Of a stretch of DNA of 64,000 bases, positions 32,484 to 36,626 are shown in pieces. Each line of letters starts with the position of its first letter. The first letter of the stretch is position 1. The stretch lies in assembly GCA_027068435.1 (NCBI GenBank), contig JAMOTA010000016.1, forward strand, positions 15,228-79,227. Reading direction: 5' to 3'. A model generated the notes under the pieces. The model did not search any database. It was not told where the DNA came from and saw only the letters and a program-made list of their open reading frames with translations. The DNA is from Sulfurovum sp. (GTDB lineage: Bacteria > Campylobacterota > Campylobacteria > Campylobacterales > Sulfurovaceae). The position numbers and the translations under genes were made by a program.

Positions 32484-32537
32484 AAAAGTGACGTATTTAA
32501 AGTAAAAGTGACGTAAAAATAGAATAAATGACGTAAA
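32484..32537 (+). repeat. Three TGACGTA direct repeats with exact 20-bp period
   Basis: TGACGTA at 32489, 32509 and 32529, each in an A-rich context (AAAAGTGACGTA twice). Confidence 0.85.
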
Positions 32538-32604
32538 TATAGTAAAAAACCTTGACTTTAAACACCACTATTAGCTAATATTATGACAATGATAAAGGAG
32601 TAGT

Positions 32605-33273
32605 ATGACGTATGCCTATTTAAGACAGATGCCAGACAATAATAACATGTCTGCGCAACAGCGTAATATTCTCTCATTTTCATTGACTCAAAGTATAAAT
32701 ATAGATAAAGAGGTTATTGAGTACTCAAGTAAAAACCACCTTATAGAAGAGAGAAAGAAATTTGAAGAGTTTATGCACTCATTAGAAGAGGGGAGTAGTC
32801 TTATCATAGACACACTCTCAGTTTTAAGTGATCGTGCAGAAGAGTTGATAAAAATTATCAACTGTATGTTAAGTCGTAGAATAGACTTATACATCGCAAG
32901 CTCTAAGACACTGCTCAATAAAAAGACTACCGTAGTTGAAATTTTTCCTCTGCTTAATGATTTACGTGAAGCACAAAAGGCAAAGTCTAACCAGATAGGT
33001 CGTCCTAAAGGGAGTCGTTCTTCTTCTAAATTTGATGTACATCAACTAAGGATTATCAATTTTCTTAAAGAGGGTTTAAATGTGAGTGCTATAGCTAGAG
33101 AGTTAGAAGTAAGTCGTAGCTCTTTAAAAGATTATATAGAGTCAAGAGGTATTAAAGAATTGGTAGATGGGTCTTGGATTGAGATAAATCAACCAAGGGA
33201 GATGTCAGGTGTGGACAATACATTGTTAATATGTCCATTTGAACAAGAAAAACAACAAAAAAGGATATTGTAA
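32605..33273 (+). CDS. Degenerate serine-resolvase-fold protein with C-terminal HTH
   Basis: YAYLRQM (canonical YxRVS lacking Ser), GRPKGS linker, GLNVSAIARELEVSRSSL HTH; AAGGAG RBS. Confidence 0.75.
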   Translation: MTYAYLRQMPDNNNMSAQQRNILSFSLTQSINIDKEVIEYSSKNHLIEERKKFEEFMHSLEEGSSLIIDTLSVLSDRAEELIKIINCMLSRRIDLYIASSKTLLNKKTTVVEIFPLLNDLREAQKAKSNQIGRPKGSRSSSKFDVHQLRIINFLKEGLNVSAIARELEVSRSSLKDYIESRGIKELVDGSWIEINQPREMSGVDNTLLICPFEQEKQQKRIL

Positions 33274-34730
33274 TGGCAGAAGTAAATACTGAAACCCAAG
33301 AGAAACCAAAGAAAAATCAATCAAAAGAGTATCTAAAAGGGTGGATTCCTTATAGAATTAAACGGTATTGGGCTTATGCTATAGCTACTATCATGGCTTT
33401 AGTTATGCCATGGATTACTATTGGTGGAAATCATATCTTTTTACTTAGCTTTGACCAAAAGAAACTACACCTTATGGGTACAGCATTTGATATGCAAGAG
33501 CTTTACCTTATGCCTTTTTTACTTATGTTACTTTTTCTTGGTATTTTTGCAGTGACTGCTGTAGGTGGTAGAGCATGGTGTGGATGGGCTTGTCCTCAAA
33601 CAATCTTTAGAGTTATATATAGAGATGGAATAGAGACAAAACTTTTAGGTTTACATAAACGTATTAAAAATAAGCAAAAAAAACCAGATATGTCTAAAAA
33701 AGAAAATATGGTTAAAAAAATAATTGCAATTTTACTTTGGTCTGTCTTGGCACTCGTTGCTGCATCAGACTTTTTATGGTTCTTTGTACCACCTGAAGAT
33801 TTCTTTACTTATTTATCTAACCCTACAGAACACATGATGCTTGTGGGTATTCTTTTGAGTGTAGCTGCATTTATTGTAATAGATGTTGTTTTTATTAAAG
33901 AAGATTTTTGTATTTATATCTGTCCTTACAGCCGTGTACAGTCAGTACTCTATGATGATGAGACAATTCAAGCAGTTTATGACCCTATCCGTGGTGGTAG
34001 CATTTACCAAGGTAAAGGGTACAGTAGAGAGAAAAAATATGAAAAAACAAAAGAGTTACTTCTTGTAGAACCAACGGCTGAATGTACAACATGTGAAAGT
34101 TGTGTAACAGTTTGTCCTACTCATATTGATATTCGTAAAGGGATGCAGTTAGAGTGTATCAACTGTCTTGAATGTGTAGATGCATGTACAACAGTTATGG
34201 GAGCGTTAGGTAAAGAGAGTTTAGTGCGTTGGTCTAGTGAAAAAGAAACACTTAGACATGAGGGGAAAACTAACCTGTTTAGACCAAAAATTATTGCATA
34301 CTTTACTGTTCTTGCACTGGTTTTAGTAGCACTATTTGCTATGGGTAGTACAAAAGAAAATATGCTTTTAAATGTTAATAAAAACACAAGACTTTATAAA
34401 ATTCTTGATGGTGGTGTGGTACAGAATGATTATCTATTCTTATTTCAAAATACAGATAGTAAAAGACATACTTATTTCTTTGAAATTGTAGATAATGACA
34501 ATATAAAAATTATTAGACCTAAAGAGTCATTTAGTATTGCCGCAGGGAAAAAGAGAAAAAAAGTAGTTATTTTACAAACAAAAGAGAAGTTAGCAGATGA
34601 TGCAAGAAAAGATATACCTATTCCTGTAACTATCAGAGCTTATGCACTTGATAATAAAGAGAAAATAATTATTACAAGACATACAGTATTTGTTTATCCT
34701 CGTTCAGACTTAATAAACAATAAGAAATAG
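33273..34730 (+). CDS. ccoG: cbb3 oxidase accessory protein CcoG/FixG/RdxB
   Basis: GRAWCGWACPQT, FCIYICPYSRVQS, CTTCESCVTVCP, CINCLECVDAC, FixG C-terminal domain. Confidence 0.95.
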   Translation: MAEVNTETQEKPKKNQSKEYLKGWIPYRIKRYWAYAIATIMALVMPWITIGGNHIFLLSFDQKKLHLMGTAFDMQELYLMPFLLMLLFLGIFAVTAVGGRAWCGWACPQTIFRVIYRDGIETKLLGLHKRIKNKQKKPDMSKKENMVKKIIAILLWSVLALVAASDFLWFFVPPEDFFTYLSNPTEHMMLVGILLSVAAFIVIDVVFIKEDFCIYICPYSRVQSVLYDDETIQAVYDPIRGGSIYQGKGYSREKKYEKTKELLLVEPTAECTTCESCVTVCPTHIDIRKGMQLECINCLECVDACTTVMGALGKESLVRWSSEKETLRHEGKTNLFRPKIIAYFTVLALVLVALFAMGSTKENMLLNVNKNTRLYKILDGGVVQNDYLFLFQNTDSKRHTYFFEIVDNDNIKIIRPKESFSIAAGKKRKKVVILQTKEKLADDARKDIPIPVTIRAYALDNKEKIIITRHTVFVYPRSDLINNKK

Positions 34731-34735
34731 TTAGT

Positions 34736-34939
34736 ATGAAAAATATAGAACCTACATTAGAAACAATAGAAGACTATGATGGAAAGGAGAGTCCTGAGAA
34801 GAGAATGACTATTTGGATAGTCATTCTTACAGGACTCCTTATTGGTGCAGTGTATATTATTTTGAATGCAACAACAGATGTATCAGATGAGTTAGATAAA
34901 GTGGATGTAGTGCAGACATCAACTATCTATAAACATTAA
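34736..34939 (+). CDS. Small single-TM hypothetical protein
   Basis: 67 aa with one hydrophobic helix; 5 bp after ccoG. Confidence 0.6.
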   Translation: MKNIEPTLETIEDYDGKESPEKRMTIWIVILTGLLIGAVYIILNATTDVSDELDKVDVVQTSTIYKH

Positions 34940-34960
34940 TAGAAATAAAGGAAAAGTAAA

Positions 34961-36130
34961 ATGACAAAAGTTTTAGTACTTGGTGGAGGTTTTGCTGGTG
35001 TAGAAGCAGCTATCTACCTTAGAAAACAAGAGATAGATGTAACCCTTGTAAGTGATAGAGATTATTTTTATATCTATCCTACTTCTATCTGGATTCCTAC
35101 AGGAGAAGTGACAAGAGAAGATGTATCTGTACCTTTAGATAAATTGGCTTTTGCACATGGTTTTAAACTTATTATAGAATCAGTGACACTAATAGAAGCT
35201 AAAAATAGAAAAGTAACTTTAGAGAGTGGGCGTATATTAGATAACTATGATTACATTGTTATAGCATTAGGACAAGGTAAGATAAAACATGAGGGGATAG
35301 AACATACCCTCTCTATTTGTGGTAAACCAGAAGAAGCTACCGCACTTTATAAACAGTTAGATGACTTAGTCCTTAGTGGAAAAGGTAAGATAGCTATGGG
35401 CTTTGGTGGTAACCCTAAAGATGGTTCTGCTGTACGTGGTGGACCAGCATTTGAGGTACTGTTTAATGTAGATAACTACTTAAAGAAAAAAGGAATTCGT
35501 GATAATTTTGAACTGACTTTTTTTGCTCCTATGGCTAAACCTGGACAAAAGATGGGTGAAAAAGCACTTGTTATGATGGACAAGATGTTTAAAATGACAA
35601 ATATCAATAAAAAAGTAGGTTCTAAAATCACCTCTTTTGATGAAGAGGGTGTAAACTTTGAAGATGGTACAAAATTAGAGTCAGATCTTGTGATGTTTAT
35701 CTCTGCAGGAAAAGGACACCCTATTATAGAATCTTCAGATTTACCATTAAGTGATGCAGGTTTTGTTGTAACCAATGAGTACAATGAAGTAGAGGGTTTT
35801 GAAAACATCTACGCTATAGGAGACTCTTCTGCCTTAATGGGACCAGATTGGAAAGCTAAACAAGGACATGTAGCTGAAGTAATGGCTAAAAATGTTGCTT
35901 ATAATATTTTTCAACATGCTCAGAATATTTGTTCTAAAAAAAGTTATACAGACCATTTAAATATTCTTTGTGTCATGGATACAGGTAATGGAGCAGCTTT
36001 TGTATATCGTGATGATAAAAGTGGAAAGATGATTCCTCTTCCTATTATAGGACACTGGATGAAAAAAGGGTGGGGTTGGTACTGTAAAAATTCTAAACTA
36101 GGAAAAATACCTCGAATTCCTGGAATGTAA
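34961..36130 (+). CDS. sqr: Sulfide:quinone oxidoreductase, type VI (SqrF)-like
   Basis: VLGGGFAG, LSICG (FAD-linked Cys position), SAVRGGPAFE (no Cys at the usual CxGP site), ILCVMDTG. Confidence 0.78.
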   Translation: MTKVLVLGGGFAGVEAAIYLRKQEIDVTLVSDRDYFYIYPTSIWIPTGEVTREDVSVPLDKLAFAHGFKLIIESVTLIEAKNRKVTLESGRILDNYDYIVIALGQGKIKHEGIEHTLSICGKPEEATALYKQLDDLVLSGKGKIAMGFGGNPKDGSAVRGGPAFEVLFNVDNYLKKKGIRDNFELTFFAPMAKPGQKMGEKALVMMDKMFKMTNINKKVGSKITSFDEEGVNFEDGTKLESDLVMFISAGKGHPIIESSDLPLSDAGFVVTNEYNEVEGFENIYAIGDSSALMGPDWKAKQGHVAEVMAKNVAYNIFQHAQNICSKKSYTDHLNILCVMDTGNGAAFVYRDDKSGKMIPLPIIGHWMKKGWGWYCKNSKLGKIPRIPGM

Positions 36131-36233: not shown

Positions 36234-36626
36234 ATGAAACAAATTACAGTTATGGAAAAATATCCAGTTTTTACATTGGAAATTGCTAAAAGTGAAACAA
36301 GCTATCAAACAATAGATGAAATCTTTGTCTATCTTAAAAAACAAATCTCTGAACATCCTATTGCTACGTATATAGGAGAGTTTGACCACTATACACATAC
36401 TTCAAATCTTGAAGTAGGCGTCATTAGTGATGAGATAAAAGATGCTAAAAATATTATCTGTTGTTTTGGAAAAATGTTACCAAAACCAGAAATGTTAGCT
36501 GTTCGTCCTAGAGCTATGGGTGTAGCACTTATGGAAGATAGTTTTGTCGTGAGTTTCTTAGAAGCACCCAATCCTGATGCAAATACAACGATGGAAAAAT
36601 GGGCTAAAGGTATAGCCAACCTCTAA
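36234..36626 (+). CDS. Conserved hypothetical protein (DUF302-like fold suspected)
   Basis: 130 aa with AAGGA RBS; FDHYTHT, CCFG, RPRAMGV. Confidence 0.6.
   Translation: MKQITVMEKYPVFTLEIAKSETSYQTIDEIFVYLKKQISEHPIATYIGEFDHYTHTSNLEVGVISDEIKDAKNIICCFGKMLPKPEMLAVRPRAMGVALMEDSFVVSFLEAPNPDANTTMEKWAKGIANL

Follow-up and report, generated by a model that had tools for sequence, protein, structure and literature searches.

Why would a chromosome keep a resolvase-like gene that appears unable to cut DNA, directly in front of a gene for the assembly of the cbb3 oxidase? The question is raised by an open reading frame (ORF) at 32605..33273 (+) of a 64,000-nt stretch of Sulfurovum sp. DNA (contig JAMOTA010000016.1, positions 15,228 to 79,227), the whole of which we call the window. 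We use RES as shorthand for this dead-resolvase gene and its protein, which is 222 aa long and begins with MTYAYLRQMPDNNN; the gene that follows it is ccoG. A previous, sequence-only reading of the window had described RES as a catalytically dead serine resolvase that apparently became a regulator of ccoG and sqrF. Our analysis indicates that RES is very probably a dead recombinase that sulfur- and hydrogen-oxidising Campylobacterales have retained, over a long evolutionary span, as a ccoG-linked DNA-binding protein. The term 'regulator' is suggested by the operator-like architecture of its promoter and by the fact that the DNA-binding arm and helix-turn-helix (HTH) are the most conserved part of the protein.

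RES retains the resolvase fold and lacks the catalytic residues

32605..33273 (+): RES, predicted catalytically dead small serine-recombinase homologue (domains, alignments, fold, family residue counts)
32605..32988 (+): resolvase-fold N-terminal domain and helix E, aa 1–128 (alignments, modelled secondary structure)

The resolvase N-terminal Pfam domain (PF00239) was detected in RES at 31.5 bits, above its cut-off of 23.3, and the HTH_7, HTH_28 and HTH_23 models match at aa 147–178, HTH_7 with a score (20.7 bits) under its cut-off of 23.8. A profile built from 50 family members aligned end to end with Sin (PDB 2r0q), which is the best PDB sequence match of RES, and with γδ resolvase. The AlphaFold2 model (mean pLDDT 76) comprises an α/β domain, a long helix (110–128) and a C-terminal bundle of three to four helices; the arm at 133–137 is disordered, and the DNA-binding domain at 144–188 is helical (HTH helices 144–155, 160–166, 171–180 and 183–188). 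Foldseek analysis of this model returned the γδ, Tn3 and Sin resolvases as top PDB matches (E about 1e-8 to 1e-6), with a TM score of about 0.7, normalised to the target, for the catalytic domain. The resolvase-like N-terminus and the intact HTH that had been read from the sequence are both borne out by these data. The best NCBIfam match was NF009949 (Mpi master DNA invertase; 55.8 bits, cut-off 272), which spans only the N-terminal 100 residues of RES and lies below the cut-off, so that RES is not a member of this family. Helix E is about 11–12 residues shorter in the alignments than in Sin or in a second resolvase-like protein of more canonical length described below (L021).

In register with Sin, R7 of RES corresponds to R7, while M9 (codon 32629–31) occupies the position of the nucleophile S9. 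The Sin sequence ESIDRLGRN stands opposite DTLSVLSDR, whereby D-R-x-x-R becomes S-V-L-S-D, and S72, V73 and D76 of RES take the places of D67, R68 and R71 of γδ resolvase. The same pattern extends across the family: among 325 unique members, the nucleophile column (S10 in γδ) contains M in 144 and D in 109, followed by L, V, E, I, A and K, and serine in none. The D67 column is S or W, the R68 column V or I and the R71 column D, T or N. The equivalents of R8 (RES R7) and R45 (RES R50) are arginine in 320/320 and 325/325 members, respectively. RES is therefore a small serine recombinase by fold that does not have the defining catalytic features of the superfamily and, without the serine nucleophile and the three phosphate-activating residues, it is predicted to be unable to cut DNA.

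RES is a single-copy gene under purifying selection

Strong RES orthologues (E<=1e-25) are present in about 125 of a sample of 297 complete, high-quality genomes of Campylobacterales, almost always as a single copy, and the reading frame is intact in five or more families. Those that could be named belong to Sulfurovum, Hydrogenimonas, Nitratiruptor/Nitrosophilus, Sulfurimonas and Sulfurospirillum; the names, also those of the distant lineages, rest on a subset of loci and come from source annotations. The best 80 loci of a locus search of genome contigs were all from Sulfurovaceae. Databases label the orthologues as 'recombinase family protein' or 'DNA invertase Pin-like'. RES was the sole PF00239 match in its own 2.0-Mb assembly (94 % complete), with no second gene carrying this domain.

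Pairwise Nei–Gojobori dN/dS values between RES and its closest Sulfurovum orthologues were 0.03–0.09, and those for the dead N-terminal half were 0.02–0.07; dS was saturated (>1) in these comparisons, making the ratios rough, while their direction is not in doubt. Purifying selection on RES is strong, with the N-terminal domain under no less constraint than the full-length protein, and RES is a maintained gene rather than a decaying relic. As a side observation, dS in the four closest pairs (87–91 % identity) was 0.47–0.62 in the 3′ half of the gene (32965–33273) as compared with >1.9 or saturated in the 5′ half, which could mean constraint at the nucleotide level (e.g. an internal signal for ccoG expression) or reflect recombination history.

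When 1.84 billion representative proteins were searched with a profile, about 50 clusters (at 50 % identity) scored at least 120 bits; all of them belong to the dead family, and none contains an RVS or DR..R motif. The next tier, at 116 bits or less, consists of ordinary invertases of about 200 aa with Y-x-R-V-S, SRLGRS and an LGRPKGS arm. Given this clean break in score and the Mpi-type model as the best match, the RES family looks like a single ancient derivative of the (Mpi-like) invertase lineage.

The sequence-only reading had inferred the loss of the nucleophile serine and the decay of DRLxR to SVLSD from one protein, and had proposed to follow the serine loss and dN/dS among homologues. 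Both losses stand, in register with Sin, and the absence of the serine is a property of all 325 members and likewise of the approximately 50 clusters. It had also named what would speak against it, and this was not what we found: no member keeps the serine, the orthologues are chromosomal and single-copy across the order rather than sporadic or plasmid-like, and the low dN/dS is the opposite of relaxed selection.

A second resolvase-like protein was encountered in genome G032 (L021:5983-6612, − strand). It is 209 aa long, 26 % identical to RES and also devoid of the nucleophile serine (FTYIRKNRN), and its gene lies in a housekeeping context where ccoG is not adjacent; from their translations, we take the flanking genes to be rplI-hslV-hslU and ubiX-coaD-tmk-hisS. 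Weak matches similar to this protein occur in many genomes of the same family, and it may represent an independent family of dead resolvases.

RES and ccoG form a conserved two-gene unit

32595..32600 (+): Shine–Dalgarno sequence AAGGAG, 4 nt ahead of the RES ATG (sequence read)
33273..34730 (+): ccoG, cbb3 oxidase assembly factor/cupric reductase family (TIGR02745; Fer4_18, FixG_C and Fer4_5 domains)

The ccoG gene downstream of RES encodes a full-length protein (TIGR02745, 489.5 bits, cut-off 316.7). The strong ribosome-binding site noted earlier is present at 32595–32600 and is kept as AAAGGAG among Sulfurovum orthologues, and the reported overlap of the RES stop with the ccoG start was also confirmed, as the TAA of RES shares letters with the ccoG ATG (TAATG, 33271–33275).

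Conservation of the ccoG linkage, another check put forward with the sequence-only reading, was apparent throughout. ccoG lies directly 3′ of RES on the same strand in 96 of the 98 loci with enough downstream sequence, and the same order was found in 17/18 further loci picked from more distant families. Pairwise distances of RES and the adjacent CcoG are strongly correlated (Mantel r 0.886, 91 loci, reached by 0/999 permutations), with RES evolving about 1.25 times faster than CcoG. RES and ccoG are a vertically inherited two-gene unit with RES as the first gene. ccoG itself occurs in 273 of the 301 genomes of the order; since it is near-universal while RES is found in about 125 genomes, RES is a lineage-restricted addition that is not required for ccoG.

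The other neighbours vary. moaC is upstream of RES only in Sulfurovaceae and Hydrogenimonas, and the presence of sqr behind ccoG, with or without an ORF of 67 aa, is restricted to Sulfurovaceae, Hydrogenimonas, Nitratiruptor/Nitrosophilus and one further lineage (L018). In the examined loci of Sulfurimonadaceae and Sulfurospirillaceae and in three loci of other families, RES–ccoG stands alone between unrelated housekeeping genes, and sqr was rejected as a universal target on these grounds. Of the two genes named in the sequence-only reading, ccoG alone is the conserved partner; sqr is part of the cluster in some lineages only.

In one exceptional clade (L019 in G030 and L119 in G124), the RES orthologue does not adjoin ccoG and ends right after the HTH; it has no C-terminal tail cysteine, and the helix-D position that is Cys in RES is Ala or Lys. 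A TGACGATAAA box still precedes the gene at both loci, the 67-aa ORF has homologues close by, and L119 also has a homologue of a DUF6858 protein. Separately, two or three ccoG paralogues were seen in several genomes of the Hydrogenimonas and Nitratiruptor/Nitrosophilus families (G181, G027, G122, G040, G060, G090 and G118); one copy is directly downstream of RES in the loci fetched.

The RES promoter resembles an operator

32552..32581 (+): predicted sigma-70-type promoter of RES–ccoG (−35 TTGACT, 32552–32557; 18-bp spacer; −10 TAATAT, 32576–32581)
32489–32495, 32509–32515 and 32529–32535 (+): three direct TGACGTA boxes, putative operator half-sites (exact 20-bp period)

The promoter of RES–ccoG is predicted purely from conservation. 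TTGACT/TAATAT scores 9/12 consensus matches, and the distance from the −35 element to TAnAAT is 17–18 bp across orthologous promoters. When 82 upstream regions were anchored on the −35 element, their consensus read tgacg-aaAAA ... TGACGaaaatA ... TTGACTTTtatCATCAaA ... Taa.At. Across the order, the −35 element and the first part of the spacer constitute a palindrome, TTGAC-N7-(G/A)TCAA, in which the distance from the start of TTGAC to the start of [GA]TCAA is 12 in 48/51 cases. CGTCAA is the form that the spacer element takes in Sulfurimonas, Nitratiruptor, Sulfurospirillum and others, so that in distant lineages the arms of the palindrome (TTGACG) are the same half-site as the direct repeats upstream; in the present genome, the palindrome is degenerate (TTGACTTTAAACACCAC, 32552–32568).

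Across the order, RES promoters have one to three such direct half-sites. In 111 unique upstream regions, forward TGACG was observed 222 times, as compared with 5.6 +/- 2.3 in mononucleotide shuffles and 11 in a coding control; at least one copy is present in 106/111 regions, successive copies are 20–21 bp apart in 105/116 pairs, and their positions are kept in register among orthologous regions. With a 20-bp period, i.e. two helical turns, the half-sites would all lie on the same side of the helix. Even loci whose proteins share no more than 33–45 % identity and whose flanking genes differ retain the motif, and the promoter footprint travels with RES and not with the upstream gene.

TGACG-N15-TGACG was found nowhere else in the 2.0-Mb genome, and tandem TGACG with AT-rich spacers occurred only at RES promoters in this genome and four complete relatives. 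This confinement points to a dedicated local regulator rather than a global one. A wider regulon was sought and rejected: TTGAC-N7-GTCAA occurs 1–5 times per genome (0–2 for the control) and the other copies have nothing obviously in common, while TGACG-N15/16-TGACG is not enriched genome-wide over a reversed-pattern control.

Two further candidate elements were discarded. A fourth TGACGTA box overlaps the start codon (32606–32612), where codon 2 is ACG in 7 of 32 orthologues with Thr at position 2 as compared with 19 % elsewhere; this box is not conserved and is probably due to chance. An FNR-type box, TTGAC-N4-ATCAT, fits the Sulfurovum versions only, whereas the CGTCAA palindrome with N7 spacing suits every lineage and agrees with the half-site upstream. 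Finally, the Sulfurospirillaceae loci L108, L109, L113, L114, L115 and L122, two of which are named by source annotation, share a conserved leader, (g)TGACAAAAAGGTGACA, within the ~25 nt that precede the RES ATG. This leader overlaps the ribosome-binding site and includes a further pair of TGAC direct repeats; it may serve as an additional site for binding or have a role in translation.

The DNA-binding module and two cysteines are conserved

32998..33168 (+): DNA-binding module with GRPKG arm, S139/S141/D144 and HTH, aa 144–188 (invariant columns, Sin alignment)
32998–33012 (+): invariant GRPKG arm, aa 132–136 (invariant columns)
32863..32865 (+): Cys87 codon, helix D, 'NCM' (C in 324/325 unique members)
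33232..33243 (+): C-P-F-E tail motif with Cys210 (C in 323/325 unique members)

The most conserved block of the family consists of G132-R-P-K-G136, S139, S141, D144 and the recognition region VSRSSLKDYIxSR, which reads VSRSSLKDYIESR in RES, and the arm and HTH align to the KGRP arm and HTH of Sin. Autoregulation would be expected to show just such a pairing of an invariant recognition helix and an invariant half-site.

Both cysteines are present in 392 of 402 full-length members, and 315 of these 402 contain exactly two Cys in total. The tail Cys, in the form EC(P/S/K)(L/F), is found in every ccoG-linked lineage and is absent only in the L019/L119 clade. The tail that carries it (aa 190–222) is modelled with low confidence (pLDDT <50 for aa 190–210) and is probably flexible.

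A model for RES and the alternatives

We infer from these sequences that RES would bind the promoter motifs, that repression would be the effect and that a chemical signal may modulate it. Oligomers of RES would occupy TGACG half-sites of their own promoter: one pair makes up the palindrome that spans the −35 element and part of the spacer, and upstream of it there are one to three additional copies in direct orientation. RES bound at the palindrome would repress the RES–ccoG transcript and thereby control how much RES is made and how much CcoG, the cupric reductase that supplies the cbb3 oxidase with copper. A change of state of the Cys pair in response to a signal would then release or tighten this binding, the most likely input being the two cysteines acting as a disulfide or persulfide switch or binding Cu(I). 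According to PMC8267372, which cites Marckmann 2019, CcoG is a cupric reductase that supports cbb3 oxidase biogenesis and acts on cytoplasmic copper. Because CcoG is the universal partner, Cu(I) or an oxidant would be our first guess for the signal; persulfide would be the second, given that sqr is part of the operon in several lineages and that every host inhabits a sulfidic environment. Autoregulation of the RES–ccoG operon through the TGACG sites appears probable, while the role of the Cys pair as a sensor is a tentative suggestion on which we lean slightly towards doubt.

Several points weigh against this proposal. The TGACG boxes could belong to another factor, and the second arm of the palindrome is degenerate in the present genome (CACCAC). 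The comparison with shuffles was made on related sequences and overstates independence, and the simple promoter scan is not significant alone (20 matches, 17.3 expected). No regulon beyond the RES promoter was detected in this genome or in the other genomes scanned, and the broad description as a 'regulator of respiratory genes' has no support. Many families have ccoG without RES (273/301 genomes with ccoG, about 125 with RES). As for the switch, the Cys210 tail is of low confidence in the model, and no contact between Cys87 and Cys210 is predicted.

Among the alternatives, the one that deserves most attention is that RES acts independently of DNA as a partner of CcoG, handling Cu(I) or Fe–S or serving as a chaperone through its two Cys, with some other factor on the TGACG boxes. 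Strict adjacency and co-divergence with ccoG, translational coupling through TAATG and the two near-invariant Cys would all agree with such a role, as would the action of CcoG on cytoplasmic copper described in PMC8267372. A pure chaperone would, however, have no use for the GRPKG arm and HTH, which are the most conserved part of the protein, and the DNA motif co-occurs with RES across the order while the flanking genes change, so we regard this explanation as improbable. Less probable again is a non-catalytic architectural DNA-binding protein or an accessory subunit of an active recombinase encoded elsewhere, an idea invited by the catalytically silent subunits that resolvases employ at accessory sites and by the resemblance of the phased direct repeats to Sin site II. 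The 94 %-complete assembly contains no other resolvase-domain gene with which RES could cooperate, there is no invertible or excisable segment and there are no mobile-element genes, and the sites lie exactly on and upstream of the RES promoter.

The invariant R7 and R50, together with the few members that have Ser at the position preceding the nucleophile or Thr at the nucleophile position itself, might be taken to indicate an active recombinase with a non-canonical nucleophile. This is very improbable: no hydroxyl residue is conserved at or beside the nucleophile position, the equivalents of D67, R68 and R71 have all given way to other residues, most of them hydrophobic or acidic, and helix E, on which synapsis and subunit rotation depend, is shorter by about 11–12 residues. 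The bare database label 'recombinase family protein' could be read as a sign of a functionless, decaying relic of a mobile element, for which we see practically no chance; this reading is refuted by the selection and synteny data, i.e. dN/dS of 0.03–0.09, a frame intact in at least five families, fixed synteny and no mobile-element context.

Returning to RES as an autoregulatory DNA-binding protein, the separate parts can be joined into a more far-reaching reading, in which RES founds a signal-responsive family of transcription factors on the serine-recombinase scaffold, with a two-cysteine switch that tunes copper delivery. Dimers or tetramers would assemble a res-like nucleoprotein complex on the phased TGACG half-sites; the Cys of the former catalytic domain, together with that of the new flexible tail, would sense Cu(I), persulfide or oxidants; and the switch would adjust copper delivery to the cbb3 oxidase in vent and sediment Campylobacterales that have no FNR and ArcA. 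Taken as a whole, this combination is unlikely to be right in every part. According to a review of respiratory regulation, Campylobacterota are without FNR, ArcA and NarP orthologues (PMC6682613); this leaves a niche that lineage-specific respiratory regulators could fill.

Neighbouring genes

34736..36130 (+): lineage-variable cluster tail, comprising an ORF of 67 aa with a single transmembrane (TM) segment (34736–34939) and an SQR-like flavoprotein (34961–36130) (ORFs, domain scans)

The 67-aa ORF matches no Pfam or NCBIfam model; tblastn finds homologues of it at loci of Sulfurovum, Nitratiruptor and Nitrosophilus. Downstream of the SQR-like gene, positions 36234–36626 encode a DUF6858 protein (191.7 bits), with tblastn homologues at the same relative place in several Sulfurovum loci and Hydrogenimonas. 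Upstream of RES, on the opposite strand, are moaC and a DUF493 gene. The genes from 19.5 to 41.4 kb have housekeeping or respiratory functions; besides DUF493, moaC, ccoG, the SQR-like gene and DUF6858, they include dnaN, pyrG, recJ, an SQR-like gene with a Tat signal, a cytochrome b/dihaem c gene, a PhsA/Psr-like ABC set, tpx, murB and a gene of menaquinone synthesis. Among the ORFs scanned in this region, none matched a family of transposases, integrases or phage proteins, in agreement with the sequence-only reading, which had seen no mobile-element genes nearby.

Comparison with known systems

Literature searches revealed no description of a dead serine recombinase family acting as regulators, nor of a link between a resolvase and ccoG, and a review of mobile-element recruitment in prokaryotes treats serine recombinases only as active invertases (PMC8987985). 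The label 'recombinase family protein' misleads the annotation of mobile elements in the genomes concerned. The reuse of catalytically dead enzymes as regulators is well known in general. The RES family offers a natural experiment that can tell which elements of a resolvase are used to recognise sites and to assemble on them when catalysis is gone, and it provides a concrete candidate regulator of cbb3-oxidase biogenesis in Campylobacterota, a group in which few respiratory regulators are known (PMC6682613). With a predicted operator and two cysteines at hand, the hypothesis is directly testable.

RES shares its fold and its domain order (α/β domain, helix E, GR arm, HTH) with γδ/Tn3 resolvase, Sin and the Hin/Gin invertases and, as in γδ resolvase, the equivalents of R8 and R45 are present. 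Unlike small serine recombinases, it has no Ser nucleophile, no D67/R68/R71 and a shorter helix E, and in contrast to canonical resolvases it carries an extra C-terminal tail with a near-invariant Cys. It also differs from small serine recombinases in its genetic setting, being chromosomal, single-copy, vertically inherited and fixed beside ccoG, and neither a recombination substrate nor a mobile element accompanies it. In the profile search, its closest live relatives were the Mpi-type master DNA invertases and the related invertases of about 200 aa, which have the LGRPKGS arm in common with RES; these invertases keep RVS and SRLGR, whereas RES is without both.

Functional analogues may be found among the SqrR/CstR/BigR persulfide sensors and the CueR-type Cu(I) sensors, which are small, autoregulated, two-Cys DNA-binding proteins encoded with sulfide- or copper-related genes. 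This likeness would be one of function only, as RES is built on a resolvase scaffold and is related to ArsR, CsoR or MerR proteins neither in sequence nor in fold. In Proteobacteria, FixK/FNR controls the cbb3-assembly genes fixGHIS (ccoGHIS) at a palindromic TTGA-type box. RES belongs to an unrelated protein family, and its box, TTGAC-N7-GTCAA over the −35 element with direct repeats, is distinct from the FixK/FNR box, TTGAT-N4-ATCAA at −41.5.

Active resolvases autorepress from res, and Sin binds direct repeats at site II. The layout of the RES promoter is reminiscent of the accessory subsites of a res site and of Sin site II and, like small serine recombinases, RES probably binds several phased subsites before its own gene. 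On this comparison, RES would represent the repressor side of a resolvase from which recombination has been removed and to which a cysteine switch has been added.

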